Part shown: positions 214 through 28,583 of the stretch, piece by piece | How the letters are laid out: each line of letters opens with the position of its first letter | How positions within the stretch are numbered: position 1 is the first letter of the stretch | The notes under the pieces: model-generated | Database searches by the model: none | Told to the model about the DNA's origin: nothing | The model's input: the letters and a program-made list of their open reading frames with translations, nothing else | Sequence record: SRR20825019_904 | Strand: one strand, 5' to 3' | Length of the DNA stretch: 32,293 bases | Translations under genes and position numbers: made by a program

Positions 214-1902
214 TTGAAGAGAATAGTTTTTATTGTCCTTAATTTATACCTACTAAATTTTAGTAATGTTTTTTCACAAGATCTAAAACTTCAAATTAAA
301 GTTGAGGATACTTTAAATTTGAAACATTTAGACAACTCATTAGCACTAAAAAGATTCAAAAACTTTTCAAGGCTTTCTTCATCATTTGACTCTATTTTCA
401 ACAATCTTCAAAATAAAGGATTTATAAATCTGAAGGCAACCCCTATACAAAAGGTTAACGACAGTATTTTTGAAAGCACTTTAAACTTAGGAAAACAGGT
501 AGATTCAATATTTATTGATATTCCACAATCCACATTCACCCTGAAACAACTAAAATCTGTAGACCCAAATGCCAAAGAGTCAAGAATAAAAATACCTATA
601 AGCAAAACGCAAAGCATACTAAACTATCTAAATAATTTACAAGCAAACTCTGAATCTCCATTTAGCTCACTAAGCTTAAAAAACATAAAAATTAACAAAA
701 CATCACTTTATGCAGATTTAAGTTTAGAAAGTACTAAACAAAGAACTATTGATAAGATAATTATAAATGGTTATGAAAAATTTCCTAATTCATTTATAAG
801 GTATGGCGCAAGACTAAAAATTAAACAACCTTTTAATAGAGAAACATTAAAGCGAAAATCTAAACAGTTAGACAATTTAAGTTTTGCGACCACTAAAAAA
901 GATCCTGAAATTCTATTCACTAAAGATTCCACAAGTGTCTATTTATACATAGAGAAGAAAAAATCTAATTCATTTGATGGCTTTTTAGGCTTTTCAAATA
1001 ATGCAGAAACCGGCAATCTTGAATTTAATGGGTACCTAGATTTAAATCTTACTAATAATTTAGATTTTGGAGAATCTCTTAATCTAACCTATAAGTCTGA
1101 CGGAAGAGAACAAGTTCAATTTAAATCTGGCATTAACCTTCCATATTTATTCAAGACACCAGTGGGTTTATTGCTAGACCTTGAAATATTTAAGAGAGAT
1201 TCTACGTTTGTTACTGTTGACCAAAATGCGCGACTAAATTATCAAATCACCAACAACTCTAATATTTATTTAGGCTACAAAGGAACAACATCCAGCAACC
1301 TTGAAGAGGAACCAATTGCAGGCACCACCATTGTAGACTACACTTCTAACTACGTAGATTTTGGAGGTAAAACAGAACAACTTTCGTCCAACAAGCTATT
1401 CCCGACTACATTTCACGTTAGCCTAAACAGTTTAGTGGGGAAAAGATCTACCGAATTGCTAGAGGACACCCAAGTTAGAGGCTCTATTAATTCTCAATAC
1501 AATTATCAACTTAGTGACAGAAGTTATTTGTTTGCAAAAAACTACGCTTCAATACTATTAACAGAAAACTACATAACAAATGAACTGTTTAGGTTTGGAG
1601 GCATTCAATCAATTAGAGGATTTGAAGAAAATAGTATAGATGCATCTCTTTTAAATTCATTTCAGTCTGAATTTCGCTATATCTTATCTCCAAATCTTTA
1701 TACGCACTCTGTGTTAGATTATGCATATTATGAAAATGATGTGTTAGGCATAAAGCAGCAACTCGTGAGTATTGGTTTTGGTTTAGGGCTTTATACCAAT
1801 TCGGGTTTATTAAAAGTTGTTTTTGCCAATGGAAAAACAAGCGATCAGTCATTTAAATTCGACAACACGAAAGTACACCTAAGCTTTTTTACAAAATTTT
1901 AA
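214..1902 (+). CDS. Omp85 (BamA/TamA)-family outer membrane protein with POTRA-like N-terminal region
   Basis: 562 aa, TTG start, signal peptide ending VFS-Q, barrel start motif SNSFDGFLGF, Omp85 loop-6 motif FRFGGIQSIRGFEE, C-terminal Phe (FFTKF). Confidence 0.8.
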   Translation: MKRIVFIVLNLYLLNFSNVFSQDLKLQIKVEDTLNLKHLDNSLALKRFKNFSRLSSSFDSIFNNLQNKGFINLKATPIQKVNDSIFESTLNLGKQVDSIFIDIPQSTFTLKQLKSVDPNAKESRIKIPISKTQSILNYLNNLQANSESPFSSLSLKNIKINKTSLYADLSLESTKQRTIDKIIINGYEKFPNSFIRYGARLKIKQPFNRETLKRKSKQLDNLSFATTKKDPEILFTKDSTSVYLYIEKKKSNSFDGFLGFSNNAETGNLEFNGYLDLNLTNNLDFGESLNLTYKSDGREQVQFKSGINLPYLFKTPVGLLLDLEIFKRDSTFVTVDQNARLNYQITNNSNIYLGYKGTTSSNLEEEPIAGTTIVDYTSNYVDFGGKTEQLSSNKLFPTTFHVSLNSLVGKRSTELLEDTQVRGSINSQYNYQLSDRSYLFAKNYASILLTENYITNELFRFGGIQSIRGFEENSIDASLLNSFQSEFRYILSPNLYTHSVLDYAYYENDVLGIKQQLVSIGFGLGLYTNSGLLKVVFANGKTSDQSFKFDNTKVHLSFFTKF

Positions 1903-1951: not shown

Positions 1952-1982
1952 TTGCAATTATTAGGTTTATTGCTGAGTTTCG
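1952..1982 (+). promoter_or_regulatory. Putative promoter of susC1
   Basis: TTG (1952-1954), 20-nt spacer, GAGTTTCG (1975-1982), a degenerate TAnnTTTG. Same geometry as upstream of susC2. Confidence 0.45.
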
Positions 1983-1986
1983 TGCC

Positions 1987-2063
1987 GGCTAATTCAAATA
2001 AATTATAAGATGAAAACAAAGTTTAGTGGAATTTTAACGCTAATCCTAGCGTTTGTCGTGCAA
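1987..2063 (+). repeat. Direct repeat copy 1: susC 5' leader plus first 18 codons
   Basis: GGCTAATTCAAATAAATTATAA (1987-2008) is identical to 6583-6604. 70 of 77 nt match 6583-6659 by manual alignment. Confidence 0.9.
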
Positions 2064-5000
2064 TTTTCTTTTGCACAGGACAAAACCGTAACAGGTGTGG
2101 TTACAGATAATTCTGGCTTACCACTACCAGGTGTTACAATTATTGTAAAAGGGACCTCTAATGGAACCCAAACCGATTTTGATGGAAATTATTCTATCAA
2201 CGCAAGCGAAACAAGTACTTTAGTGTACTCTTTTATTGGTTTTAAAACACAAGAACAGCTTGTAGGAAGCAAAACCAACATTAACGTTACCCTTGCAGAA
2301 AGCACAGCAGAGCTAGACGAAGTAGTAGTTGTAGCATTTGGACAACAAAATAAGCGTAAGCTTATACAAAGTGTTTCTGTGGTAGACGAAGAGGCTTTAA
2401 GAGACATTCCCGCAAATTCTCCTCAAGAATTGATTCAAGGTCAGGCAGCTGGTGTACAAGTAGTACAATCTTCTGGTGTTCTTGGAGCTGCTCCAACAAT
2501 TAAAATTCGTGGTGTTGCATCAGTTTCATCTGGAGCTAGACCTTTATTTGTTGTAGATGGTGTACCATTAAATGACACAGACCTTACATCAAACCAAGGT
2601 GCGAACCAAGGACTTAACCCTTTAGCAAACATAAACCCTAATGATATTGCATCTATCTCAGTACTAAAAGATGCTTCGGCAACTGCTGTATACGGATCAA
2701 GAGGATCTAATGGTGTTGTATTAATTACAACTAAGACTGGTAAGAAAGGGCAAGATACTAGAGTAACATTAAATATGAATACTGCTTTCAGCGAATCTAC
2801 AGACACATTTGATATGATGACTGCAGACGAGTTTAGACAATATGCAGTTGATGCAGGTTACTTCTCAGGAGTGACTTCTCCAGACGACTTACCTCAAGGT
2901 GATTTTGATTGGGTAGATGGTGTTACAAGAACTGGAATCTCTAAAAATATAGATGCCTCTGTAAGTGGTGGTAGTGAAAAAACTTCATTCTTTATTAGTA
3001 CAAACTTTAAAAATGAAGAAGGATTTATTATTGGAAACGGACTTAAAAGAACTGCTGGTCGTATAAACATTAACCACGAAGCTAATGATTGGTTGGATGT
3101 AGGTGCAAACATTGGTGTAAGTTTAAACGAATTTGACAGAGTAGGTGCAGAGAACAGCACGTTTGCTCCACTTACATCTGCTTATTTAATAAGACCTTGG
3201 GTTGAACCAAGAGATGAAAATGGACAGTTTGTAAACACTGGTTTTATTGCAAACACAATAGCAATTGAATCTTTAGACATCAACAAATCTGATCAATCAA
3301 GATTAACAGGTAACTTTTTCGCAACTGCCGGAATTACAGATTACTTAAGTTTTACTTCAAAATTTGGTGTAGATAGAGTTTTAATTGAGGAGCAGCAACG
3401 TTCTTTTGAGATTAACACTCCTGGTGGATTCGCTTCAAATAGTTACGCTCAAGACAATAGAGTACTATTAACTAACTCTTTAAACTTTGACAAAACGTTT
3501 AATGACGTACACTCTGTAGGAGCTGTAGTAGGTATATCTTATGAAGAAAACAAAATTAGAACATCTACAGTAGCTGGTACAGGCTTTGTTAGTGATGCAA
3601 GTATAAACGTAGTTTCTGCTGCAGAAAAAACAACTACTACATCTGGTGCAACAGAAAACAGATTAGTAGGTTATTTTGGTAGAGTAAACTATGCTTACGA
3701 CAACAAATATGTATTAGAAGGGTCTTTAAGAAGAGATGGATCTTCTCGATTTGGAGCTAATGAGCAGTTTGGTACATTCTACGCAGTAGCCGGTGGATGG
3801 AACATCTCTGAAGAAGCATTTTTAGAAGATGTTGATTGGTTAAACAACCTAAAGCTTAGAGCAAGTTATGGTACAACAGGTAATGACAGAATTGGTAACT
3901 TTAGCTCTTTAGCATTATACCAAGGTGGTGTAATTGGTCAATATAATGGTTCTGCTGGTTTAGCACCAGATTCACCTGGAAACCCAGATTTAAGATGGGA
4001 AGAGTCTAAATCTTACGACTTAGGTTTTGCAACATCTTTGTTTAACAATAGAATATCTTTAACTGTTGATTACTACAACAAAGTAACATCAGACCTTATA
4101 TTAAACGTACCATTATCAGTTGCTGCTTTCCCAGGACAAAATTCAAGACCAGAAAACATTGGTGAGATTGAAAACACTGGATTTGATATCAGCTTAACTA
4201 CTGATAACGTTAGAAATGACAACTTTACATGGACAACTAGTATAAATGTTGGTATTAATGAAAATAAAGTTAATTCATTACCAGGTGCTGCAGTAGATGA
4301 CCAAGGCAGAGAATTTGTTGCTGGATCTGCATCTCAAAGAGCAATTGTAGGTGAGTCTGTAAACACATTTTATTTAATAAGATATGTTGGTGTTAACCCA
4401 CAAACTGGAGATGCTGAATGGTTAGATAGAGATGGGAACGTTACAACTACACCAACTGCAAGTGATAGAGTTGTTGTAGGAGATGCAAACCCAGATTTTG
4501 TTGGTGGTATTACAAATACCTTTAGATACAAAAACTTCGATCTTAACTTATTAGCAAACTTTAGTGTTGGTAATGATATTTATATTGACGGTTTAAGGTT
4601 TACTGATAATGCAGCTTCAGGAAGTTTCAACAACAGAAGAGCGTTATTAGACGTTTGGCAACAACCAGGTGACAATGCATATGTACCTGCTTTTGACAGC
4701 CCAACATTCTCTACATTCGATCAGAGATCAACATTACAGTTAAGAGATGGTTCTTATTTTAGAATGAAAAATGTAACTCTAGGATACTCTATCCCAGAAA
4801 CATTTATGGAAAAAATTGGTTTAGTAAAAAGCGTGAGACTTTATGCAACAGCTACTAACCTATTTACTATAAAAGCAGACAACTTAGAAGGTATTGATCC
4901 TGAAGTTACAGACACAAGCTCTGCTTTAGGACAAGGTGAAACATTTTTTACACCACCTCAGTCTAAGTCATTCTTATTCGGAGCAACACTAACATTTTAA
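2010..5000 (+). CDS. SusC/RagA-family TonB-dependent outer membrane transporter (SusC1)
   Basis: 996 aa; signal peptide; carboxypeptidase-regulatory-like N-domain (GTSNGTQTDFDGNYSI); LDEVVVV; plug motif LKDASATAVYGSRGSNGVVLITTK; RRDGSSRFG; NPDLRWE; C-terminal Phe. Confidence 0.95.
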   Translation: MKTKFSGILTLILAFVVQFSFAQDKTVTGVVTDNSGLPLPGVTIIVKGTSNGTQTDFDGNYSINASETSTLVYSFIGFKTQEQLVGSKTNINVTLAESTAELDEVVVVAFGQQNKRKLIQSVSVVDEEALRDIPANSPQELIQGQAAGVQVVQSSGVLGAAPTIKIRGVASVSSGARPLFVVDGVPLNDTDLTSNQGANQGLNPLANINPNDIASISVLKDASATAVYGSRGSNGVVLITTKTGKKGQDTRVTLNMNTAFSESTDTFDMMTADEFRQYAVDAGYFSGVTSPDDLPQGDFDWVDGVTRTGISKNIDASVSGGSEKTSFFISTNFKNEEGFIIGNGLKRTAGRININHEANDWLDVGANIGVSLNEFDRVGAENSTFAPLTSAYLIRPWVEPRDENGQFVNTGFIANTIAIESLDINKSDQSRLTGNFFATAGITDYLSFTSKFGVDRVLIEEQQRSFEINTPGGFASNSYAQDNRVLLTNSLNFDKTFNDVHSVGAVVGISYEENKIRTSTVAGTGFVSDASINVVSAAEKTTTTSGATENRLVGYFGRVNYAYDNKYVLEGSLRRDGSSRFGANEQFGTFYAVAGGWNISEEAFLEDVDWLNNLKLRASYGTTGNDRIGNFSSLALYQGGVIGQYNGSAGLAPDSPGNPDLRWEESKSYDLGFATSLFNNRISLTVDYYNKVTSDLILNVPLSVAAFPGQNSRPENIGEIENTGFDISLTTDNVRNDNFTWTTSINVGINENKVNSLPGAAVDDQGREFVAGSASQRAIVGESVNTFYLIRYVGVNPQTGDAEWLDRDGNVTTTPTASDRVVVGDANPDFVGGITNTFRYKNFDLNLLANFSVGNDIYIDGLRFTDNAASGSFNNRRALLDVWQQPGDNAYVPAFDSPTFSTFDQRSTLQLRDGSYFRMKNVTLGYSIPETFMEKIGLVKSVRLYATATNLFTIKADNLEGIDPEVTDTSSALGQGETFFTPPQSKSFLFGATLTF

Positions 5001-5017
5001 TTGAAAAAAGAAAAGAC

Positions 5018-6403
5018 ATGAAAACATATAAATATTTATTTATTCTAATCACAGCTTTAGCATTTACAAGCTGCGAAGATGAATTGAATGTACTTCCTGA
5101 AGATGACCAGTCTACAGAACAAGTATTTTCAAGTGAAGCAGGTGCTCAAGGAGCATTAGTTGGTGTATACAGTTTTGCACAACAAGACGATGTTCTTAAT
5201 GGTACATCTACATTAGCTACAGAGTGGCAAGCAGATAATGTTGATTTTGTAGGCTCATTCCCAACATTTAACGACATAAGAACATACGAAACACAAGCAG
5301 ACAACACTTCAATATTTGCCATTTATGATGACAACTATGAGGTTATTGGTGCAGCAAACAACGTAATTGCATTCGTTCCTACAATCGAAGATGAAAACTT
5401 CACAGAAGAAGAACGTGCTCAAGTGATTGCTGAAGCTAAATTTATGCGTGCTTTAGTATACTTTAAATTAGTTAATTTATTTGGTCAGCCATTACAAGTT
5501 GGTGGCGGAACTACATTAGCTGTTCCTTTAGTTACTGAACCATTCTCAATTTCTGGAGAAGCAAATCCTCCAAGAAATACAGTTAATGACATACACGCAC
5601 AAATTGAGCAGGATTTAACAGAAGCTATACCGTCATTAACAAATGCAGACAACTCAAGAGCTACTACTGGTGCTGCGCAATTGTTATTAGCGCGTCTTTA
5701 TTTATACCAAGAGCGTTTTGGCGAAGCAGCAACTTTAGCAAATGATGCTATTAGTAACGATGAGTTTGTATTAGCTACAAATTATACATTCTACAATACG
5801 CAATCAACTGAGTTCTTTTTCACACTAGTTAACACACCTGCAGATGGTCAAGATAGTGGCCAAGGTTTTTCAGGGTTAACAAATCCGGCTCCAGCTGGTC
5901 GTGGTGATGCTCCTTTTAGTGATAATTTAATTGAAGCATACCAAGAAGAAGCTGGTGATTTAAGATTCACATTAACTCAAACAGGTACATCTGCTTCAGG
6001 TGAAGACAGATTATTTACAAGTAAATTTCCTGATGGGAACACAAACTCAGATAATGCACCTGTATTAAGAGTTACTGAAGCTTATTTAACAAGAGCTGAA
6101 GCAAACTTTAGAAACGGAAGTACTATTGGTGCTGCTCCACTTGATGATATCAATGACTTAAGAGACAGAGCAAATTTACCACCACTAGGTGCTTTAACAC
6201 TAGACCAGATCTTAAATGAAAGACGTAAAGAATTAGCATTTGAAGGACAACGTAGAATGGATCTTTTAAGAAACGGTTTAAACTTGAGACGTCCAGGCAT
6301 GCCTAATGAAGCTGAGTCTGCACCAGGTCAAAACAAGACTATTTTACCTATTCCAGCAAGAGAAGTTGACTTAAGCGGATTAGAGCAAAATCCAGGTTAT
6401 TAA
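5018..6403 (+). CDS. SusD/RagB-family nutrient-binding lipoprotein (SusD1)
   Basis: Lipobox AFTS-C followed by acidic EDE; AEAKFMRALVYFKLVNLFG; ERRKELAFEGQRRMDL; ends QNPGY; directly after susC1. Confidence 0.93.
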   Translation: MKTYKYLFILITALAFTSCEDELNVLPEDDQSTEQVFSSEAGAQGALVGVYSFAQQDDVLNGTSTLATEWQADNVDFVGSFPTFNDIRTYETQADNTSIFAIYDDNYEVIGAANNVIAFVPTIEDENFTEEERAQVIAEAKFMRALVYFKLVNLFGQPLQVGGGTTLAVPLVTEPFSISGEANPPRNTVNDIHAQIEQDLTEAIPSLTNADNSRATTGAAQLLLARLYLYQERFGEAATLANDAISNDEFVLATNYTFYNTQSTEFFFTLVNTPADGQDSGQGFSGLTNPAPAGRGDAPFSDNLIEAYQEEAGDLRFTLTQTGTSASGEDRLFTSKFPDGNTNSDNAPVLRVTEAYLTRAEANFRNGSTIGAAPLDDINDLRDRANLPPLGALTLDQILNERRKELAFEGQRRMDLLRNGLNLRRPGMPNEAESAPGQNKTILPIPAREVDLSGLEQNPGY

Positions 6404-6426
6404 CAAAACCTTTTTAAAGTAAAATT

Positions 6427-6455
6427 AACGCCACCTTAAAAGGGTGGCGTTTTTT
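6427..6455 (+). terminator. Rho-independent terminator after susD1
   Basis: Stem AACGCCACC (6427-6435) / GGTGGCGTT (6443-6451) with a T-run to 6455. Confidence 0.85.
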
Positions 6456-6546
6456 ATTACACAAAATTCATTGAAACCACTTATAAACTGAAAGATTGGT
6501 AAAGCTTAATCTAAATTTTAAAAAATTAATATTTTCCTAATATATA

Positions 6547-6577
6547 TTGCATATTTAAGTTTTTATTAGCACTTTTG
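6547..6577 (+). promoter_or_regulatory. Putative promoter of the susC2 operon
   Basis: TTG (6547-6549), 20-nt spacer, CACTTTTG (6570-6577), one mismatch to TAnnTTTG. Lies downstream of the susD1 terminator. Confidence 0.55.
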
Positions 6578-6582
6578 GCGTT

Positions 6583-6659
6583 GGCTAATTCAAATAAATT
6601 ATAAAATGAGAACAAAATTTAGTGGAATTTTAACGCTATTCTTAGCGTTTATGGTGCAA
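6583..6659 (+). repeat. Direct repeat copy 2: susC 5' leader plus first 18 codons
   Basis: 70/77 nt identical to 1987-2063, including an exact 22-mer. Confidence 0.9.
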
Positions 6660-9600
6660 ATGACCTTTGCACAATCAAAGACGATTACCGGTACGGTAAC
6701 CGATGGTAGCGGCTTACCGCTTCCAGGTGTAAACGTCATTATTCAAGGTACTTCAAATGGTACTCAAACAGACTTTGATGGTAATTATTCTATCTCAGCG
6801 TCTACAGGAGACATTTTAGTATTTTCTTACATTGGTTTTACTACACAAAATCAAACTGTAGGAGCAAGTAACACAGTTAATGTTAAACTTGAAGCTGGTG
6901 AGGAACTGGACGAAGTTGTTGTAACTGCCTTAGGTATTAAGCGTAAGCAGGATGAGATTACAACTGCTAACCAGGTTGTGAAGAGCGAAGAACTTACTCA
7001 AGCACAAAACCCTAACGTTGCTCAAGGTCTTGCTGGTAAAGTATCTGGTCTTCAAATTAATACTACAAACAGTGGTGTAAACCAAAATGTACGTATTAAC
7101 TTGAGAGGTAACAGATCTTTAACTGGTGACAACCAAGCTTTAATTGTAATTGATGGTGTAATTTCTTCATCTCAAGTACTTACTGCTTTAGATCCTAACA
7201 TTATCGAGGATATTAACATTATTAAAGGTGCAAACGGTGCTGCACTTTACGGTTCTAGAGGTTCTAACGGTGTATTTATCGTTACAACTAAAAAAGGATC
7301 TGGTGGAGACAAGCTTACTGTAGCAGTAAACTCTGCAACTTCTTTTGAAGAAATCGCTTACATCCCACAACGTCAGACTAGATATGGTCAAGGTTGGAAT
7401 GGAGAGCACGTAAACTACGAGAATGGTGGTTGGGGACCAGAATTTGATGGTTCATTACAACCAGTTGGTCTTCCTCAAGAAGATGGTTCTTACAGATTTT
7501 TCCCTTATGTATCTTTAGGTGATAACATTAGTGAATTTTTCCAAACAGGACGTACATTCCAAAACACTGTATCTTTAAGTGCTGGTAACTTAGAAGATGG
7601 TTATGTATTCTTATCTGCTAACAAGACAGACACAGAATTCGTAATTGCAGATGACGTTTCAGAAAGAAACACATTCAACTTTAAAGGTGGTAAGAAAATT
7701 GGAAACTGGACATTAGAAGGTAACGCTACATATTTAACTAGCAAAACTACACAGTCAACAGGTACTCTTTACTTAGAGTTACTTCAAACTGCAACTAACA
7801 TTCCAGTACAGGAGTTTTCTGAGCCTAATAACGCTACACACTGGACATCTTACTACAGATCTCCATATTGGATTAGAGATAACGAAAGAACAACAGACAG
7901 ATACGATATCTTTAGTGGTATTGCTAACGTAAGCTACCAATTTAACGATCATATTAGTATTGGTTACAATGCTAACATCAGAACTCGTCAAAGAAGTGGT
8001 TTAAGCTACGTAAATGGTGATGTTGATACTGCTAATATTGGTGGTGGAGATTACACTACTATCTCTAGCTTTGATACATATGCAGATACACAGAGAAACT
8101 ACTACGGTGATTTAATCATTAACTTTAATGATTATAACATTACTGATGATATTACGTTTAGTGCTAACATCGGTCAGAACTTACAGGATAACTTATTTAC
8201 TCAATCTACAAATGGTGGAGATAACTTAACAATTCCTGGTTTCTACAATGTAGATAACATTACTGGAACACCAAGAGTATCTAACACTATCTTAAGATCT
8301 CGTCGTATGGGTCTTTTTGCAAACTTAGATTTTGGATATAAAGATTTCTTATTCTTAAACGTTACAGGTCGTAATGACTACGTATCTACATTAGATAAAG
8401 AGAACAATTCATTCTTTTACCCAAGTGCTGGTATATCTTTCATTCCTACTAAAGCATTCCCAAGCTTAAAAGGTGATGTATTAAACTTCGCTAAGATTGC
8501 AGTTAGTGCTGTAAAAGTTGGTAACGACGGTAGTATTGGAGCTTATGAAACAGTACCTGTTTTCGAACAAGCTGCTAACTATCCTTACGGAACGTTAAAC
8601 TCTTTCAGACAAGATAGAACTATTACAGACCCTTTATTAGAGCCTGAATTTGTAACGTCTTATGAAGGTAACTTAAACTTAGGTTTCTTTAAAGATAGAT
8701 TAACTTTTGACGGTTCTTACTATTTCTCTAAAAACACAAACCAAATTGCTAATACATCTACGTCTTCAGCATCTGGTATTAGTTCTTCGAGAATTAACAT
8801 TGGTGAGACTGAAACAAGAGGTTTTGAAATTGACTTAGGATTTACGCCTATCAAAACTGAGAACTTCCGTTGGGATGCTAGAATTTCTTATTCTACAAAC
8901 GAGACAAAAGTTATTAAGATTAGTGATGATACAGATGAGATTGCATTACAATCTTTCCCAAACAATGCTAACCCAGTTGGTGTATTTGCTGTTGTTGGAG
9001 AAACATTCCCTACTATTAAAGGAACATCTTACTTAAGAGATCCTCAAGGTAGAGTATTAATTGATCCTACTACTGGTACTCCTAGAGTATCTTCAGACCT
9101 TACTAACTTAGGTACTTCAAACCCTGATTATATCATTGGTTTAAATACTTCTTTTGAATATAAAGGTTTCCGCTTAGCAGGTGTATTTGATTACAGAACT
9201 GGTCACCAATTCTGGTCAGGTGCTAAATCTTGGTTATCTTGGTCTGGTCACTTAATCGAAAGTGCTGAAAACGGACGTGGTGGATTTATCTACCCTAACT
9301 CTGCTATTGAAACTTCTCCAGGTGTATTCGAAGAAAACACTAACGTAATTACAGGTGGAACAACGTATTCTAACTACTTAAACTACTTCTCTAACGATTA
9401 CTACACAGTAACTGAGAACTTTGTTTTAGATGCGACAGCTTTCAAAGTAAGAGAACTTTCATTAACTTATACTTTACCACAAGATTATTTAGCTAAAACA
9501 CCACTTACTGCTGTAACTGTAGGTGTAAATGCTAGAAATCCATTTACTGTGTTACCAAAAGAAAACAGAGGTTATAACGACCCTGAAACTTCTAACACAA

Positions 9601-9683
9601 CTGGTAACGGTCAAGGTTTAGCGGCTATCAACCAATACCCAGTAACAAGATCTTACGGTCTTAACCTTAACATTAAGTTTTAA
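6606..9683 (+). CDS. SusC/RagA-family TonB-dependent transporter (SusC2, different subfamily)
   Basis: 1025 aa; LDEVVVTALGIKR; LAGKVSGLQI; KGANGAALYGSRGSNGVFIVTTKKG; GRNDYVSTL; NSFFYPS; C-terminal Phe. Confidence 0.95.
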   Translation: MRTKFSGILTLFLAFMVQMTFAQSKTITGTVTDGSGLPLPGVNVIIQGTSNGTQTDFDGNYSISASTGDILVFSYIGFTTQNQTVGASNTVNVKLEAGEELDEVVVTALGIKRKQDEITTANQVVKSEELTQAQNPNVAQGLAGKVSGLQINTTNSGVNQNVRINLRGNRSLTGDNQALIVIDGVISSSQVLTALDPNIIEDINIIKGANGAALYGSRGSNGVFIVTTKKGSGGDKLTVAVNSATSFEEIAYIPQRQTRYGQGWNGEHVNYENGGWGPEFDGSLQPVGLPQEDGSYRFFPYVSLGDNISEFFQTGRTFQNTVSLSAGNLEDGYVFLSANKTDTEFVIADDVSERNTFNFKGGKKIGNWTLEGNATYLTSKTTQSTGTLYLELLQTATNIPVQEFSEPNNATHWTSYYRSPYWIRDNERTTDRYDIFSGIANVSYQFNDHISIGYNANIRTRQRSGLSYVNGDVDTANIGGGDYTTISSFDTYADTQRNYYGDLIINFNDYNITDDITFSANIGQNLQDNLFTQSTNGGDNLTIPGFYNVDNITGTPRVSNTILRSRRMGLFANLDFGYKDFLFLNVTGRNDYVSTLDKENNSFFYPSAGISFIPTKAFPSLKGDVLNFAKIAVSAVKVGNDGSIGAYETVPVFEQAANYPYGTLNSFRQDRTITDPLLEPEFVTSYEGNLNLGFFKDRLTFDGSYYFSKNTNQIANTSTSSASGISSSRINIGETETRGFEIDLGFTPIKTENFRWDARISYSTNETKVIKISDDTDEIALQSFPNNANPVGVFAVVGETFPTIKGTSYLRDPQGRVLIDPTTGTPRVSSDLTNLGTSNPDYIIGLNTSFEYKGFRLAGVFDYRTGHQFWSGAKSWLSWSGHLIESAENGRGGFIYPNSAIETSPGVFEENTNVITGGTTYSNYLNYFSNDYYTVTENFVLDATAFKVRELSLTYTLPQDYLAKTPLTAVTVGVNARNPFTVLPKENRGYNDPETSNTTGNGQGLAAINQYPVTRSYGLNLNIKF

Positions 9684-9700
9684 ACATATATCATAATAAC

Positions 9701-11203
9701 ATGAAAAAAATAATTTATTTATTTACATTAATCTTAGCCGTTGGAACATTCCAATCGTGTGAAGATTACTTGGACATCAATGATCCATTAAACGATCCTA
9801 TTGAATCTCAGGTAACACCAGACTTAATATTAGCTGGCGCTATGACAGGTTCATTCCCATCTCAATCTAATAACATGAACCGTTTAGGTAATGTTATGAT
9901 GAACAACTGGGCTGGTAACATTAACGCCTTTACAGGTGGTTTTAATGAAGAGTACCAATTAATTATTACAAGTACTTTCTATAACTTTATCTGGGATGGT
10001 ATCTACTTAAACGTTGCTAATTTCCAAGCAATGATTGATGCAGATTTCGAAAACTACGAAAATCACAAAGCTATTGCTAAGATTATGAAATCTTACTACA
10101 TGCAATATATAGTTGACCTTTATGGAGATGCTCCTTATACTGAAGCTTTCCAAGGTGGTGATAACCCAACTCCTACTTATGATGATGACATGGAAATTTA
10201 CCGTGCATTAATTACAGAAGTTGATGAAGCATTAGCATTAATAGACAATAATACTGACCTTACAAACCCTGTAGGTTCTGAAGATGTTGTTTACAATGGT
10301 AATATGACAAACTGGGTAACTTTTGCAAATACTCTTAAGTTACGTATCTTAATGAGACAATCTACATTAGCTGAAACTGATGGAGAAACTGCTTCTTATT
10401 TAGCAACACAGTTCCAAGCATTACAAGATGCTTCTTTCATCACAACTACAGCTGCAATTAATCCAGGTTATGCTAACGATACAGGAAGACAAAATCCTTT
10501 CTATGCTACTTACGGATTTAACGTAGATGGTTCTCAAACAACTTCTAACCGTTTTATCGTTGCTTCTCTTTATGCTGAGCAATATTTAGATGGTACATTA
10601 ACTGGTATTCTTGATCCAAGAATTAACGAGTTATATACTCCGGTTGATGGTGAAGTACAAGGTGTACAACAAGGTGTTGATAGTAATGATCCTAGTGTTC
10701 CAGACGAAATTTCTCCACTTGGTGAAGGTCTTTTAGTTGATGCTAGTCAAGATGGTGTATTATTTTCTGCAGCAGAAAGCTTTTTCTTACAGTCTGAAGC
10801 TGTATTTAGAGGATATATCGCAGGAGATGCTAAAGGTCTATTCCAAGACGGTATCAGAAGTTCTTTTGACCAATTAGGAATAGGAGCTCAAGCAGAAGCA
10901 TACATTACTAACAGTGATGGAGTTGATGAAATTGGTTGGGATGGTAGTGCTAACAAAATTGAAGCTATCATGACTCAAAAGTGGATTGCTACTAACGGAA
11001 TTAATGCTATTGAATCTTTCATAGATATGAATAGAACTAACTTCCCAGAAGTACCTTTAGCAATCAACGCGCAACGTGATAAAAAACCAACGCGTTTATT
11101 ATACCCATCATCTGAATCTATCGCAAATGCTGCTAATAAGCCAGCACAGGAAACTGATGATGCTTTTAATACGTATATATTTTGGGATTCAACACAGAAT
11201 TAA
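9701..11203 (+). CDS. SusD-like (starch-binding-associated type) lipoprotein (SusD2)
   Basis: Lipobox TFQS-C followed by EDYLDIND; VDLYGDAPYTEA; WVTFANTLKLR; IMTQKWIA; RLLYP; ends IFWD. Confidence 0.9.
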   Translation: MKKIIYLFTLILAVGTFQSCEDYLDINDPLNDPIESQVTPDLILAGAMTGSFPSQSNNMNRLGNVMMNNWAGNINAFTGGFNEEYQLIITSTFYNFIWDGIYLNVANFQAMIDADFENYENHKAIAKIMKSYYMQYIVDLYGDAPYTEAFQGGDNPTPTYDDDMEIYRALITEVDEALALIDNNTDLTNPVGSEDVVYNGNMTNWVTFANTLKLRILMRQSTLAETDGETASYLATQFQALQDASFITTTAAINPGYANDTGRQNPFYATYGFNVDGSQTTSNRFIVASLYAEQYLDGTLTGILDPRINELYTPVDGEVQGVQQGVDSNDPSVPDEISPLGEGLLVDASQDGVLFSAAESFFLQSEAVFRGYIAGDAKGLFQDGIRSSFDQLGIGAQAEAYITNSDGVDEIGWDGSANKIEAIMTQKWIATNGINAIESFIDMNRTNFPEVPLAINAQRDKKPTRLLYPSSESIANAANKPAQETDDAFNTYIFWDSTQN

Positions 11204-11219: not shown

Positions 11220-12089
11220 ATGAAAAATTTAAAATTTTTAGCCCTTACAGTGTTCTGCTCAACGATGTTTACATCTTGTTTAGTAGATGATACTGATGAG
11301 ACTTTAGAAGCAGTAGCTAACACTCCATACACAATTGGATTTAGCCAACAAGTAGCAAACGAAAGTTATTTTGAGGATATAGGACCTATTGAAGCTGGTT
11401 ACAACGTAGTTGTAATCGGTGGTCAAGATGGCAGTGATCCTTCACAGGACATTACAGTATCTTACACTGTAAACACTGAATTATCTTCTGCAACAGAAGG
11501 TGTCGAGTTTGACTTTGTAGATAACAGCGGTTCTTTAACAATTCCAGCTGGTAGTGATTTTGGAAGATTTAATTTATTAATTAACACTGGTGGTCTTAAT
11601 GAGACAATGCCAACAAGATTAGTTTTAGATCTTACTGCTGCAGATTCTACTGGAGCTCCTGCTGTAGTTGCAGCTAGTAATAGCAGAATTGCAATTACGT
11701 TTGTTGGTTGTAACTCTCAATTAGCTCAGGAGGATAATAACTTCACAGACTATTTTGTACAGTTAACTAGAGAAGATGGTGGTAGCTACAATGGTAACGA
11801 AGTAATTGAGTGGATTGCTCCAAACCAATTCTTAACTGAAAGTACTGGATTTTGGGGTGTAAACACTATTGCTCCAGATACATCAATGAACTTTGAAGTT
11901 ATTTGTGGTGAAGTATTTGTACCTAACCAAGGTCTTGCTCAAGGATTTTACAGTAACGAAGTTTACGGTGTTAACTTAGATGGTCCTGATGGATTAGTTG
12001 ACTTAGAAACATTAAACTTTGACATGTCTTACATCATTACTTTTGGATCAGGTCCATTAAGACACGATGTAACTTATACAAGACTATAA
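11220..12089 (+). CDS. Acidic surface lipoprotein of the SusCD operon (Ig-like, SusE-positioned)
   Basis: Lipobox MFTS-C followed by LVDDTDE; beta-rich sequence (SATEGVEFDF..SLTIPAGS); 16 nt after susD2. Confidence 0.75.
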   Translation: MKNLKFLALTVFCSTMFTSCLVDDTDETLEAVANTPYTIGFSQQVANESYFEDIGPIEAGYNVVVIGGQDGSDPSQDITVSYTVNTELSSATEGVEFDFVDNSGSLTIPAGSDFGRFNLLINTGGLNETMPTRLVLDLTAADSTGAPAVVAASNSRIAITFVGCNSQLAQEDNNFTDYFVQLTREDGGSYNGNEVIEWIAPNQFLTESTGFWGVNTIAPDTSMNFEVICGEVFVPNQGLAQGFYSNEVYGVNLDGPDGLVDLETLNFDMSYIITFGSGPLRHDVTYTRL

Positions 12090-12107
12090 CAAAACATAAC
12101 ATAAAAC

Positions 12108-13052
12108 ATGAAAAATACATTTAAGAATATATTATTACTTTCAGCTTTATCTATTTTTGCTGTAGGTTGTATGGATGACGATCAAAGTTATCCAGATCCA
12201 AACAAACCAGAAGTTAATGTAGTAAACCAGAGCATCACAATTGATGAAGCTGGAGATGCTGCAATCATTAACCTTACTGTTAGTCGTGCAATTGGAGATC
12301 CAATTGATTTAGTACTAACTCCAGTAAGTGGTGATGCTGTTGTTGCAGATTATAACGTATCAGGAAACGGAACGTTCAACTCACCAGATGATGGTGTTGG
12401 AGCAACTCCATCTTTTGATATTGTAATTCCTGCTGGACAAACTTCTCACGAGATTCCAGTAAGTGCTATTATCGATTTAGATACTAATGCTAGCGAATCT
12501 GTTGTTTTTGAATTAAGAAGTACAGGAAGTGGTCAAAGTTTTGTAAACCCATCTACTTCTACTATTACTGTTAACATCAACAACGCAGCTAACACTAGTT
12601 TTGGTGCATTACTTGAATGGGAAGGTGATGTTACTTACAGTTTCTTAAACGCAGATAATGAAGAAGAATCTTTAACTGAAGGATTATGTGATCACGTAGA
12701 TTTCGATTTATTCCTTAATCCAGTTGGTTATGTTGCAGGTTCTGCAGCTTGTCCAGAAGTTAACTATGCTTTTGGTGAATTAGCTGATGGTGATTACCAA
12801 GTATTTGTAGATCTATATGATGTAGCGCCAGGTGAAACTCCTCTTGCTCCATTTGCTATTCCTTTCAAATTAACTTTAGGAAAAGTAGGTGTAATCTCTA
12901 CAACTTTAGAGTACAATGTATATACTTCAGATAGCCCAACTAGTGCTCCTGCTGGATTAAACGATGGTTTATTCTTAGCTGCTACAATAAATGTAGCTGG
13001 CGGAAATTATACTATTGCTGATGCAGAAGGTACTGTAGTTGCTGCTGAGTAA
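12108..13052 (+). CDS. Acidic surface lipoprotein with Calx-beta/Ig-like N-domain
   Basis: Lipobox FAVG-C followed by MDDDQ; ITIDEAG..SGDAVVADY..IPAGQTSHEIPV..IIDLD..E..F resembles Calx-beta; last gene before the terminator. Confidence 0.7.
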   Translation: MKNTFKNILLLSALSIFAVGCMDDDQSYPDPNKPEVNVVNQSITIDEAGDAAIINLTVSRAIGDPIDLVLTPVSGDAVVADYNVSGNGTFNSPDDGVGATPSFDIVIPAGQTSHEIPVSAIIDLDTNASESVVFELRSTGSGQSFVNPSTSTITVNINNAANTSFGALLEWEGDVTYSFLNADNEEESLTEGLCDHVDFDLFLNPVGYVAGSAACPEVNYAFGELADGDYQVFVDLYDVAPGETPLAPFAIPFKLTLGKVGVISTTLEYNVYTSDSPTSAPAGLNDGLFLAATINVAGGNYTIADAEGTVVAAE

Positions 13053-13074: not shown

Positions 13075-13105
13075 AAAACACCTCTTTTTAAGAGGTGTTT
13101 TTTTT
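13075..13105 (+). terminator. Rho-independent terminator ending the susC2 operon
   Basis: AAAACACCTCTT (13075-13086) / AAGAGGTGTTTT (13090-13101) with a T-run to 13105. Confidence 0.85.
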
Positions 13106-13118
13106 ATCTTTATACCCT

Positions 13119-13856
13119 ATGACAGAAGACACTAAAATATACGGATTAAGAGCAATTATTGAAGCTATTGAAGCCGGTAAGGATATTGAAAAGGTATACC
13201 TTCAAAAAGAATTAGAAGGAGATCTTTTTAAGGAGTTAGAATCACTAATAAAATCTAAGAGAATAAGCAGTTCTTATGTTCCTGAAATTAAAATTGAAAA
13301 GTTAAGTAAAGGAAGGAACCATCAAGGTGCTGTAGCTAAAGTGGCACCTATATCATTTCAGGATTTTGAAATAACTATAAACAGAATAATAAAGGATATT
13401 GAGTCTCCAATCTTTTTAATGTTAGATCAAATATCAGATACTCGTAATTTTGGTGCAATTGTAAGAACCGCAGAATGCACTGGTGTTTCTGCTATTATAA
13501 TTCCTAAAACAGGCTCTGCTCCTATCACTGCAGATGCAGTAAAAACATCGGCAGGAGCTATTTTTAATATTCCTATATGTAAAGTAGATCATATTAAAGA
13601 TGCAATCTATTATTTACAAAGTTGTGATGTGAAGATTGTAGCTGCTACTGAAAAGACAGACAATACAATTTACGATGTACCTTTAACAGGTTCTCATGCT
13701 TTAATAATGGGTAGTGAAGGTCTTGGTATAAATCCTTCAGTTTTAAAGATAGTAGATTACAAAGCTAAACTACCACTATTGGGTAAAATTGAATCTCTAA
13801 ATGTATCTGTTGCTACTGGTGCATTTCTTTATGAAGCTATAAGACAAAGACAGTAA
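13119..13856 (+). CDS. rlmB: 23S rRNA (guanosine-2251-2'-O)-methyltransferase, TrmH/SpoU family
   Basis: IYGLRAIIEA, NHQG, LDQISDTRNFGAIVRTA, MGSEG, ESLNVSVA. Start set at ATG 13119 (MTEDTK); the GTG at 13095 lies inside the terminator. Confidence 0.9.
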   Translation: MTEDTKIYGLRAIIEAIEAGKDIEKVYLQKELEGDLFKELESLIKSKRISSSYVPEIKIEKLSKGRNHQGAVAKVAPISFQDFEITINRIIKDIESPIFLMLDQISDTRNFGAIVRTAECTGVSAIIIPKTGSAPITADAVKTSAGAIFNIPICKVDHIKDAIYYLQSCDVKIVAATEKTDNTIYDVPLTGSHALIMGSEGLGINPSVLKIVDYKAKLPLLGKIESLNVSVATGAFLYEAIRQRQ

Positions 13857-25226: not shown

Positions 25227-28200
25227 TTAATCTTTTATTATTCGTTTTATAAATTTTCCTTGTTGGGTTGTAACTGTCACAAAGTAAACACCTTTAGTTA
25301 GAGAAGTTAAATTAATAGAGGTGTTCTTTGAGGTTAATAAACGTTGCCCCGTTAACGTTGTTACTACTATAGATGTGACTGTATTACCTGAAACAGTTTC
25401 TACATTTAAATTCGAATTTACTGGATTAGGATAAAGCAATATATTTTTGGGCATACTAGTTTCTGGGACACTAAGTGGCGCCACTACCTCTGTAGTTACA
25501 GTGTTGGTGATGATTGGCTCATTAAAATCGAAAAAGATATTTGCAGTATTTTCTACAGACTCTCCTAGTGTAAGGCTTGCTACTGGCTTTATCCTAAATG
25601 CAACATACCCGTTACTACCTTCTGAGTCATCTTGTTCTGCAGGAAGAAATATATCTTCAAAAATAAATTTTACAATGTTTCCAGCTTCTACCTCTAATCT
25701 GTACTCATGACTAGAAGCTACTGCTTTTAAAGTTCCCCATTGTAAATTATTAGATAATGTATCTGTTACTGTTATATTTACAGCACTTGCTGTACCTGTA
25801 TTTTGGAAACGCACCAGGTAATCTAAATAATTAGGCACTTCTGCTTCTAAAATACTTTCGCCTTGTGTTACTTGCTTGTCATTTGGATCAAAAGAATTTA
25901 CTACTATTTGCTCGAAAACCTGACTATTATCTTCTGGAATAGCATCATTTGAGTTTGGAGATATTGTTATTGTGTAGCTTAGGATATCGTCTCCATTAAC
26001 TGTTGGTGGCTGAAAAATGTCTGTAGTAAACACAATAGAGCCACTTTGAAATGGCTGCAAGTTGCTAAAACTCCAAGTTACCATATTACTAGTTACTGAA
26101 GTCTCTTGAGGTGTACTACTAAGGTAATTCATCTTAGTATCTTCAAACATTAAAGTTATAGTGGGATTTAAAACTGTAGTACCGTTATTCTCAAAATTGA
26201 TTAAATAATCTGTTTCAAAACCTGGTCGCGCTTCTTCTAATGGAAAAATTGAAACTGCTAGATCGTCAAAAGAACTTGAAGATGTTAGGCAGAAATCTGC
26301 AGTTACCTCTGTTTCAGATTCTGTGAATAAAACAGTTTGACTTGCAGGAGAAAACGAAACATCACTTGGTAAAGATTGTTCATTTATATATACCGTATAT
26401 TCATTATCAGATAATAATAACACATAGTTACCATTACTATCTGTAAGTGTTGATAGTATTCCGTTTGAATTTTCTACACTAACAAGAATACCTTCTGATG
26501 GTGCGTTTCCTGTACTACAGCCATTGTTATCTATATCGAAAGAAATAGTTCCTGTAAGAGAGTTAACAACACCTATACAGCCTTGTTCAATTTCTTGTAA
26601 TGAATTACAACCTGTTGCGTTATTGGCAATATTAAAATTTGTATTTCCCGCTGCAATGGCCAGACAAAAGCTCTCTATACTACAATTAGACAATGCGGAA
26701 TTATCTATAATTTGCACATTTCCTACTACAGTTGCATTTTCCAAGCTATTAATATTAAATAATAAAGGGTTTCTTTCAATACTAATAGAACTAACTTGAG
26801 TAGTAGTTTCTAACCCATTTAAGTTTGTGATATTAGGATTATCTTCAATAGCTATGCTTGATGTTACAGCAATTGAACCTTGCGTTAATGGTTGTTGTAC
26901 ATTAGGACTAAGCGTAAGCCTTAATGCTGCAACCTGTATATCACCAACACCATCTAAATTAACCATTGTCTCGTTAAGACCTACGGTAAGTGACTCAACA
27001 TATTGAAGGTTAGATAAACCATTCAAGTTGGGTAACATATCGTTAGTATTTATAATAAAGGAATTTTGAACGCTCTCTAAATTTTGCAACCCATTTAGTG
27101 ATGTTATACCATTTCCGCTAAGACCGATAAATGAGGTTGAAACAATATTCTCTAATCCAGTGAGATCTGTTAACAGAGCATTGTCCACTATTTCAATTTC
27201 TTGCATCCCTTCAAGTTCACTTGTTAATGCTATTGACGACATTGATGGATTATCTGTAACAGCTAACTCTTGAATAGTAGTGCTACCCAAACCATCTAAG
27301 TTGATCAAATCCTCATTAAACTCTACAACTAATGTCATTACACTCTGTAAATTGGTGAGGCCTGTAAGGTTAGGTAATATAATATTAGAAGCTATAGTTA
27401 AAAACCCTGTTACCTCAGTTAAATTTTCTAAGCCCACTAAAGAAGAAATAGTATTGCTACTAATTGAGACATTACTTAAGCTTGTTGTTGTTTCAAGTCC
27501 TTGTAAGTTATTTAGGTCGTCGTTTAACAAAACCTGCAAGCTTTCTGTCACCTGTAATGTATTTGTTGTCGCAATTTGCTGTAGTACAGGATTATTGCTT
27601 ATAAGGACAAAAGACAAGGTAGCATCAGGCAATCCATTAAGGTTAGTTAGGCTACTATTATTATTAACTTCTAAACTTTCTATAATTACTAGATTATCTA
27701 AACCTGTAAAGTTTGTAATATTTGGAGATTGTATAATTCTGAAAAAATCACTTATCTCCACAAGATTATTTAATCCAGTAAATGATGTTATGGCGTTGTT
27801 TGAAAGGCGAAGATCTTGAAGGTGAGTTGTCTCTTCTAAGCCAGTAAAATTATCCAAGGAAGTATTATTATTCACTTCTAAATTTACAGTAACATTTATG
27901 CTCGTCGTTGTAGAAATTTCAGACATAGCAACATTAGAGCTTATACCTAAATTATCAACAGTAAGCATTCCAACCCCATTTAAATTTTGGAGATTATTAT
28001 TTTGGTTTACACTTAATCCGCGAGCTAAGGTTAAGCCTCCAAGACCAGATAAGTTTAAAAGAGCGTCATTGTCATTAATTGCTGCAGAAAATGTTACGGT
28101 TGTGAGGTTATCTAATCCTGAAAGAGAAGTTATAGGGTTATTACTAATCTCTAAAACTTGTAACATTGTTGTTCCTTCAAAACCTTCTAAACTAACTAAT

Positions 28201-28583
28201 GAGGGATTATCAAGAATTCTTAGTTGAGAGGTGACTTCAATTTGGCTAGTAGAAATGCTTTGTAAAGATTCATTTTGAGTAATAGTAAGATTCTCTACAG
28301 TTATATTTCCTAAACCGTTTAAGTTTAAAAGATCATCATTTTCTATAACCAGTAAGTCTTGAACAGTAGTTAATGAAGAAAGTGGCGATAGGTCTGTAAT
28401 TTGATCTGTAGACACAGCAGTAGTCCCTATTCTTAAATCAATAAGTGTGGTACAGTTTGGAAAGTTGGCGCCAAAATCATCGACATCGGCTTGTGTTCTT
28501 AAATCTGCAAAATTTCCTGTAGGACATTGTGCATAAAATATTGATGTAAAAAGAAGACTAATTAAAAGTAGAAGTTGTTTCAT
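25227..28583 (-). CDS. T9SS-secreted leucine-rich-repeat (receptor-L-like) surface protein with Ig-like/DUF7619-type domains and type A CTD
   Basis: Signal peptide ending FYA-Q; Cys cap QCP..TQADVDDF..NC; about 25 LRRs; SFDPNDK..YLVRFQNTGTASA..DTLS..ANIFFDFNEPIITN; CTD YPNPV..KGVYFV..KRIIKD. Confidence 0.88.
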   Translation of the reverse strand: MKQLLLLISLLFTSIFYAQCPTGNFADLRTQADVDDFGANFPNCTTLIDLRIGTTAVSTDQITDLSPLSSLTTVQDLLVIENDDLLNLNGLGNITVENLTITQNESLQSISTSQIEVTSQLRILDNPSLVSLEGFEGTTMLQVLEISNNPITSLSGLDNLTTVTFSAAINDNDALLNLSGLGGLTLARGLSVNQNNNLQNLNGVGMLTVDNLGISSNVAMSEISTTTSINVTVNLEVNNNTSLDNFTGLEETTHLQDLRLSNNAITSFTGLNNLVEISDFFRIIQSPNITNFTGLDNLVIIESLEVNNNSSLTNLNGLPDATLSFVLISNNPVLQQIATTNTLQVTESLQVLLNDDLNNLQGLETTTSLSNVSISSNTISSLVGLENLTEVTGFLTIASNIILPNLTGLTNLQSVMTLVVEFNEDLINLDGLGSTTIQELAVTDNPSMSSIALTSELEGMQEIEIVDNALLTDLTGLENIVSTSFIGLSGNGITSLNGLQNLESVQNSFIINTNDMLPNLNGLSNLQYVESLTVGLNETMVNLDGVGDIQVAALRLTLSPNVQQPLTQGSIAVTSSIAIEDNPNITNLNGLETTTQVSSISIERNPLLFNINSLENATVVGNVQIIDNSALSNCSIESFCLAIAAGNTNFNIANNATGCNSLQEIEQGCIGVVNSLTGTISFDIDNNGCSTGNAPSEGILVSVENSNGILSTLTDSNGNYVLLLSDNEYTVYINEQSLPSDVSFSPASQTVLFTESETEVTADFCLTSSSSFDDLAVSIFPLEEARPGFETDYLINFENNGTTVLNPTITLMFEDTKMNYLSSTPQETSVTSNMVTWSFSNLQPFQSGSIVFTTDIFQPPTVNGDDILSYTITISPNSNDAIPEDNSQVFEQIVVNSFDPNDKQVTQGESILEAEVPNYLDYLVRFQNTGTASAVNITVTDTLSNNLQWGTLKAVASSHEYRLEVEAGNIVKFIFEDIFLPAEQDDSEGSNGYVAFRIKPVASLTLGESVENTANIFFDFNEPIITNTVTTEVVAPLSVPETSMPKNILLYPNPVNSNLNVETVSGNTVTSIVVTTLTGQRLLTSKNTSINLTSLTKGVYFVTVTTQQGKFIKRIIKD
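26664..28382 (-). repeat. Five 113-114-aa super-repeats of five LRRs each within the T9SS protein
   Basis: Manual parsing gives units starting at residues 68, 181, 295, 409 and 523, with sub-repeat lengths 23/24/21/22/24 in units 2-4. Confidence 0.8.

Follow-up and report, generated by a model that had tools for sequence, protein, structure and literature searches.

Two tandem susCD units lie in the stretch of DNA analysed here (32,293 nt of record SRR20825019_904; hereafter the window), and this work concerns the mRNA 5' end of their susC genes, susC1 and susC2, a segment of about 90 nt that is conserved across the Flavobacteriaceae. The array consists of a POTRA-domain gene, susC1-susD1, a terminator, susC2-susD2, two open reading frames (ORFs) without a family match, and rlmB (Table 1). 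Both SusC proteins score above the cut-off of TIGR04056, the model for SusC/RagA TonB-linked outer-membrane proteins (849 and 530 bits; cut-off 368), and their barrels belong to different subfamilies, as the original prediction from this DNA had stated: the best alignment gives 25% identity, and the nearest solved relatives differ (8aa4/RagA versus BT2264). The same prediction drew attention to the likeness of the two 5' ends, and its figures are exact: positions 1987-2008 and 6583-6604 carry the same 22-mer, and the first 54 coding nt agree at 48 sites. Equally correct are its observations that the peptide GTSNGTQTDFDGNYSI, common to the two proteins, is encoded with 8 of 16 codons differing, and that the -7-like boxes GAGTTTCG and CACTTTTG stop 5 and 6 nt, respectively, before the identity starts. 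Its claim that the promoters themselves have diverged holds for copy 1, whose promoter has drifted; the promoter is conserved across the family, and the drift is confined to that copy.

What had been overlooked is the pair of hairpins into which the frozen codons 9-22 fold, H1 (nt 27-44 of the coding sequence) and H2 (nt 49-67), both inside the signal-peptide codons, and the compensatory changes in H1. This segment is conserved throughout the family, together with the leader that precedes it. Of 151 genomes, each representing one genus, 134 were matched by a 131-nt query; among the 150 of 235 matches listed, identity was 77-92% apart from the self-match, and most matches began at the start of the leader. 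A pattern derived from one group of matches retrieved 78 named records, nearly all from Flavobacterium, which is the basis for the family name. Loci were then collected via the neighbouring POTRA gene (67 loci, picked by eye from 97 matches to avoid a choice based on the element) and via the element itself (13 loci), which yielded 111 susC genes in addition to the two of the window; 109 of these could be placed in a common register and four were dropped. In the loci picked via the neighbour, the leader motif CTAATTCAAA was present in 80 of 93 genes, and all six H1 pairs were kept in 76 of 90. Four-fold degenerate sites in codons 3-22 have a homozygosity of 0.68-0.96 (6 columns, 109 genes), compared with 0.26-0.60 (mean 0.39; 42 columns, 109 genes) further downstream and 0.28-0.38 at the 5' ends of 69 rlmB control genes. 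The freezing of synonymous sites ends at codon 22-23, and saturation is reached from codon 26. In an order-wide sample, a covariance model detected the element in all 19 genomes of the family, four of which had been part of its training set, and gave weak matches in 4 of 122 genomes from other families; in five whole genomes, the array copies alone scored above 100 bits. The view that selection acts on the mRNA 5' end, put forward in the original prediction, is therefore strongly supported by the family-wide match, the frozen synonymous sites and the identity between genera. A search of Rfam 15 gave no match over 1987-2080 or 6583-6675 at E ≤ 5.

The two hairpins, formed by codons 9-15 and 17-23, are predicted for both window copies (z-scores of -4.6 and -4.1), and reach an ensemble probability above 0.5 in 92 (H1) and 90 (H2) of the 109 genes. 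Taken together, 90.6% of their cells are paired, and none of 500 shuffles reached the score; their covariation is 0.186, compared with at most 0.075 in slid controls, in which double changes are about as numerous. Within the first 90 nt, corrected mutual information is highest for pair 30-41 (GC in 86 genes, AT in 13 and GT in 4), in which the change from G-C to A-T replaces Ala14 by Val; the A-T form requires 12 changes on the tree of the adjacent domain, a tree that is poorly resolved. The strongest evidence for pairing comes from an independent set of 49 distinct Flavobacterium variants, which were selected by the leader and codons 1-6 alone, without the hairpin region. In all 49, pairs 26-45 to 32-39 are kept with other letters and other amino acids, pair 28-43 being G-C and pair 29-42 T-A, and H2 pair 50-66, which is T-A in most genera, is C-G in 45 of the 49. 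The ratio of G-U to A-C cells in H1 is 54:3 and 28:0, and such tolerance of G-U but hardly of A-C indicates a sense-strand RNA rather than a DNA operator. With both compensatory changes and sense-strand G-U tolerance, H1 behaves as a conserved RNA structure, and sense-strand RNA pairing is shown firmly for H1, with weaker support for H2. In 24 more divergent model matches pairing was lower, with the H1 pairs kept in 15-22 of 24. The mutual-information analysis also pointed to a possible alternative helix in which nt 40-43 would pair with nt 49-52. A further helix between the leader and codons 4-8 (P0), suggested by single-sequence folding, was rejected, its covariation being no better than that of shuffles (318 of 500). 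Judging from the substitutions, the shape of the RNA probably helps to dictate the sequence of the signal peptide, in which Thr/Val10, Ala/Val14, Phe/Leu15 and Val/Ala17 track base pairs.

Upstream of the hairpins, the leader motif occurs in 96 of the 109 genes at a variable distance of 10-13 nt from the AUG, while the spacing between the -7 box and the motif is 7 nt in 72 of 91 genes and, hence, tighter than that between motif and AUG. Position -12 of the box is G (79 of 91 genes) or C rather than the near-invariant T of Bacteroidota, and 89 of the 91 boxes lack T-12; these promoters are very strong. An A is present at positions -3, -12 and -13 in 100, 91 and 100 of the 109 genes, respectively, and A at these positions favours initiation (PMC6847099). 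The same source locates start sites 4-5 nt behind the -7 box; by this rule the predicted starts in the window are 1987 and 6582-6583, at the beginning of the identity. Two Flavobacterium homologues fit the predicted leader, in line with the original expectation, their published starts lying 22-24 nt upstream. For Fjoh_0403 of F. johnsoniae a start site is predicted 22 nt upstream, and its ribosome density (5.9) is similar to that of ribosomal proteins and of its partners SusD (6.6) and SusE (6.1), the value for OmpA being 7.9 (PMC6847099). It is preceded by a nearly silent gene of 566 aa (Fjoh_0402, 1701 nt) and followed by susD, susE and a gene of 244 aa (PMC6847099, Table S2), an order that is also that of the window, and only one other outer-membrane component of this bacterium is ranked with Fjoh_0403-0405 as most abundant (PMC12611786). 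The F. psychrophilum homologue THC0290_1956, divergent from rnhB, has a sigma-A motif and a 5' end mapped 24 nt upstream; its expression is high under every condition, and the available part of the source lists no antisense feature at this gene (PMC9723704). Its promoter-leader string resembles that of loci L209, L211 and L482. The hairpins of both homologues were deduced from relatives, which for Fjoh_0403 are the 78 named Flavobacterium loci. Metatranscriptome contigs from four runs cover both susCD units of the window and begin at 2013 and 6607-6623; these were not used as evidence for starts because contigs cannot show starts, and their breaks may stem from words shared by many species. 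The low contig cover of the upstream gene was likewise left out of the evidence.

The same 5' module is found in front of very different transporters. At 35% identity, the 109 barrels fall into 21 clusters, and the identity of codons 1-23 is 0.77-0.78 whatever the identity of the barrels. Thus, the module is reused on about 21 barrel lineages, and this reuse takes place at two chromosomal slots. The second slot, beside rnhB, carries the same module: in 40 genomes surveyed it was filled in 6 (by eye; 2 according to a script), ORF-less in 1 and absent in 33. No copy of the module was found at the rnhB slot of G001, the nearest genome. Each of the two window barrels is closer to a different Bacteroides/Porphyromonas protein, while the element is restricted to the family. 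Such a combination of old barrel lineages and a family-restricted element suggests that recombination joined the module to the barrels and that selection kept the module, and we infer this origin for the pairings; recombination would have set new barrels behind a resident module, or the module before new barrels. The set of promoter, leader motif, variable middle part and terminator also exists without an ORF: BLAST detected it in nine genera, and the one surveyed slot brings the number to ten. An example is the unit on the minus strand of L288 (genome G149; ~1418-1513), located beside rnhB, which is about 90 nt long and has a fold z-score of -8.35; further ORF-less loci are L453-L459, L481 and L521, and the unit is situated where other genera carry the second susC. 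Rfam 15 yielded for the ORF-less RNA only matches far below the gathering scores. The ORF-less unit is a candidate leader-mimic RNA or, alternatively, an empty slot.

Signal-codon hairpins are not limited to susC. In ompA, for which the sample comprises the best 30 of 70 matches, the leader and the first six codons are conserved over 30 genera and variable hairpins cover the signal codons (L422-L451); these codons are more stable than GC-matched recodings in 29 of 30 genes, and the opening cost is lower in 23 of 30. High four-fold conservation was also seen at ompA codons 133-137 (0.70-0.81). The folding trend is weaker in susD (47 of 51 more stable, 15 at p ≤ 0.05), and little trend is seen in rlmB (5 of 69 at p ≤ 0.05). 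Among ten other SusC/TonB-type starts of G001 (L022-L036), five have signal codons more stable than recodings at p ≤ 0.05. For BT2264-like genes elsewhere in the class, two of four passed p ≤ 0.05, a sample from three non-family genomes under an over-strict threshold and too small to conclude from. Signal-codon hairpins seem to be common in the Flavobacteriaceae, with susC as the frozen extreme.

Table 1. Features of the susC array in the window (sequence record SRR20825019_904)
Feature	Position	Strand	Remarks
POTRA-domain (Omp85-type) gene	214..1902	+	upstream anchor of the susC array; positional counterpart Fjoh_0402
Predicted sigma-A promoter, susC1	1952..1982	+	TTG at 1952-1954; degenerate -7 box GAGTTTCG at 1975-1982
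Predicted 23-nt leader, susC1	1987..2009	+	invariant motif CTAATTCAAA at 1989-1998; start sites of homologues 22 and 24 nt upstream
Codons 1-8, susC1	2010..2033	+	A-rich, conserved at the nucleotide level; without supported pairing
Hairpin H1, susC1	2036..2053	+	codons 9-15; AACGCT:AGCGTT
Hairpin H2, susC1	2058..2076	+	codons 17-23; GTGCAA:TTGCAC
susC1	2010..5000	+	996 aa, SusC/RagA family; nearest solved structures 8aa4 and RagA
susD1	5018..6403	+	
Intrinsic terminator between the susCD units	6427..6451	+	
Predicted promoter, susC2	6547..6577	+	TTG at 6547-6549; -7 box CACTTTTG at 6570-6577; family-consensus type
Predicted 23-nt leader, susC2	6583..6605	+	motif CTAATTCAAA at 6585-6594
Hairpin H1, susC2	6632..6649	+	
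Hairpin H2, susC2	6654..6672	+	forms in local folds; probability 0.12 with 150 coding nt included
susC2	6606..9683	+	1025 aa, BT2264/Omp121-like
susD2 (SusD-like_2)	9701..11203	+	
Two ORFs without family match	11220..13052	+	by position, place of SusE (Fjoh_0405) and of small partners of BT2264-type complexes
Terminator	13075-13101		at rlmB
rlmB-family methyltransferase	13095..13856	+	downstream anchor of the array

A sigma-70 scan, which is unsuited to Bacteroidota promoters, was used for terminators only. The relative G001, 99% identical over the query, served as stand-in for the window; its susC1 (L021) has a stop at codon 67, where the window gene is intact, and is either a pseudogene or affected by a sequencing error. 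The N-terminal regions of the two SusC proteins (2010-2405 and 6606-6940) give weak, sub-threshold matches to the BamP model, presumably via the shared carboxypeptidase-regulatory-like fold. Elsewhere in the window, the minus strand encodes a type IX-secreted protein of 1118 aa with leucine-rich repeats, DUF7619 and a C-terminal sorting domain (25227-28583) and a fused phosphoribosyltransferase-adenylate kinase (29737-30840).

Bacteroidota do not use Shine-Dalgarno (SD) pairing, and their ribosomes would therefore need an open, A-rich landing site. The leader and codons 1-8 consist of 49% A, and codons 9-23 of 56% U+G. Native local folding amounts to -14.8 kcal/mol, compared with -5.7 kcal/mol for GC-matched synonymous recodings, and is the more stable in 107 of 109 genes; opening the landing site costs less than in recodings for 107 of 133 sequences, or for 78 of 109 when recodings are GC-matched. 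With moderate confidence, and on the basis of the sequences, we propose that the 5' end of susC is a cis-acting, high-expression translation module of the housekeeping susCD mRNA, made up of a variant sigma-A promoter, an A-rich leader of 22-24 nt with a fixed motif, eight A-rich codons and the two hairpins. The U/G-rich hydrophobic signal codons would tend to pair with the landing site and would instead be folded locally, in structures whose first nucleotides lie shortly past the ribosome at initiation. These stems probably also set the pace of early elongation rounds or protect the 5' end, and strong selection on a very abundant protein, together with the double constraint of protein and RNA, may have frozen the sequence. 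We take H1 to start about 10 nt past the initiating ribosome and both stems to be met before the signal peptide exits the tunnel, a geometry that argues for effects on pacing or loading and against a direct timing of membrane targeting.

Several observations weigh against this proposal. The predicted insulation is small (0.4-0.8 kcal/mol; mean 0.43 with GC-matched nulls), which leaves room for a bound factor; of 100 recodings of each window copy, 22 and 14 are as open as the native sequence, and the window leaders are predicted to be about half paired. The leader motif is kept in the ORF-less copies, which ribosome loading cannot explain. In ompA, the four-fold sites of codons 10-22 are unfrozen (0.32-0.53) despite the hairpins, so insulation alone does not explain the freezing in susC. 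Only three independent pairs lie on well-supported branches (p = 0.25), in a tree-based test that lacked power. As for H2, it fails on its own to beat the slid control in the first set (0.091 versus 0.100), it has more A-C than G-U cells (30 versus 21; 12 versus 0), and in susC2 of the window its probability falls to 0.12 with longer context.

The retention of the motif bears directly on a different explanation, in which a trans regulator, either an RRM-type RNA-binding protein or a FopS-like small RNA (sRNA), reads the single-stranded leader motif, the hairpins present it and the ORF-less RNAs are decoys. The original prediction had named such a target, and the invariant motif at its variable distance from the AUG, its persistence in stably folded ORF-less units, its presence in the leaders of three other TonB-receptor-like genes of G149 and the action of FopS and RbpB on susC start regions in Bacteroides (PMC11697453) all keep this idea alive; we regard it as possible, if rather doubtful. 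Its most concrete candidate failed: an antisense sRNA in the 3' untranslated region (UTR) of a DUF4890-like secreted gene, which in G001 contains a 19/20 reverse-complement match (L013 1501-1520, between stop codon and terminator), was rejected because 29 of the 30 orthologous 3' UTRs lack this near-perfect copy and the duplex energies are no better than chance, with 2 of 27 beating shuffles at p ≤ 0.05 and three more UTRs too short. In many of these UTRs, repeated U/G-rich words (TTAGTT, TTGATT) precede the terminator. Neither BLAST nor one motif in G001 revealed a conserved antisense sRNA, the motif search covering the first 30 matches in each of three genomes. A trans regulator also fits poorly with the wholesale replacement of H1 letters while pairing is kept, with an F. 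psychrophilum mRNA that is constitutively high, and with the missing ORF-less copy at the rnhB slot of the nearest genome.

If, on the other hand, the leader motif were the initially transcribed part of a promoter lacking T-12, its tight spacing to the -7 box, the missing T-12 itself and the company that the motif keeps with the promoter in ORF-less slots would follow, and the hairpins would influence transcription or decay, either by pausing RNA polymerase or as a stability element near the 5' end. This we consider unlikely, since the hairpins lie within translated sequence, at a distance of 50 nt from the 5' end, and slippage on the A-run could account for the difference in spacing. It is far less probable still that a transcription factor binds H1 and H2 as DNA palindromes downstream of the start site: H1 is indeed a near-perfect inverted repeat at fixed spacing, but its tolerance is strand-asymmetric, one genome contains more than one H1 variant (L114, L131, L134 and L168), and the stem letters differ wholesale in Flavobacterium. 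Recent local gene conversion, the alternative named in the original prediction, is hardly credible on its own as the cause of the likeness between the paralogs and is not needed for it. Paralogs within a genome are slightly closer in the N-terminal domain than pairs from different genomes (0.738 versus 0.673) and often group on its tree. However, the window pair is ordinary in this domain (0.707), synonymous sites are saturated from codon 26, and equal identity is found between genera: of 107 genes from other genera, 45 agree with copy 1 at 48 of 54 positions or more, so the paralog likeness is nothing unusual in the family, and 11 of 76 other loci contain the exact 22-mer. Conversion as the sole cause is largely refuted, and it is likely to be how the module spread.

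DonS-type cis-antisense RNAs are reportedly located at susC 5' ends; susC here differs in that THC0290_1956 has no listed antisense feature in the part of its source that was available, and the window contigs carry no strand information. The translation module proposed here has points in common with several known systems. Weak folding at the start codon with strong folding downstream is a general profile (PMC4288200, PMC7063772), which likewise combines an open start with stable structure at about nt 25-70 and whose proposed roles include insulation and ribosome pacing. This profile is a statistical average, whereas in susC one defined, covarying two-hairpin structure is fixed family-wide, with amino acids following base pairs. 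In B. thetaiotaomicron, control by FopS and RbpB (PMC11697453) also concerns susC as the first gene and is centred on the translation start; by contrast, no sRNA partner was found for susC in our searches, the F. psychrophilum target is constitutive, and the conserved feature is a structure in the coding region. The Fjoh_0403-0405 SusCDE system (PMC12611786, PMC6847099) shares the gene order (566-aa gene, susC, susD, partner, 244-aa gene), and the available part of PMC12611786 mentions no RNA element. A parallel in layout is the downstream loop (DLP) of alphaviruses (PMC4872096), a coding stem-loop 27-31 nt after the AUG (25-27 in susC) on a very highly translated mRNA. In susC this distance hardly varies, but it is set by the length of the signal peptide as well. 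The DLP depends on eukaryotic scanning and contact with 18S ES6S, which have no bacterial counterpart, so this is an analogy and not a homology. Extending it, we tentatively suggest, as a rather speculative reading, that in bacteria without SD pairing a coding hairpin about 25 nt after the AUG could be an element that positions or enhances initiation, with the leader motif read by a dedicated factor that ORF-less leader-mimic RNAs would titrate in some genera. A literature search, whose coverage excluded most subscription papers, found no description of a susC leader-hairpin element. Coding-region structure near the start is of a known kind; a family-wide, covarying hairpin pair in the signal peptide, reused across transporters, appears to be undescribed.

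The published determinants of high SD-less translation in Bacteroidota lie upstream of the AUG, and the susC element adds a precise, mutable structure downstream of it. It is located on the mRNA of a major outer-membrane complex of the tractable F. johnsoniae, with natural compensatory variants as a guide. The two susC slots may be expression platforms for swapped barrels, and the module could be a ready leader for expression and secretion in Flavobacterium engineering. If the downstream hairpin indeed enhances initiation, RNA structure would, as a rule, help to shape the signal peptides that abundant envelope proteins of Bacteroidota carry.

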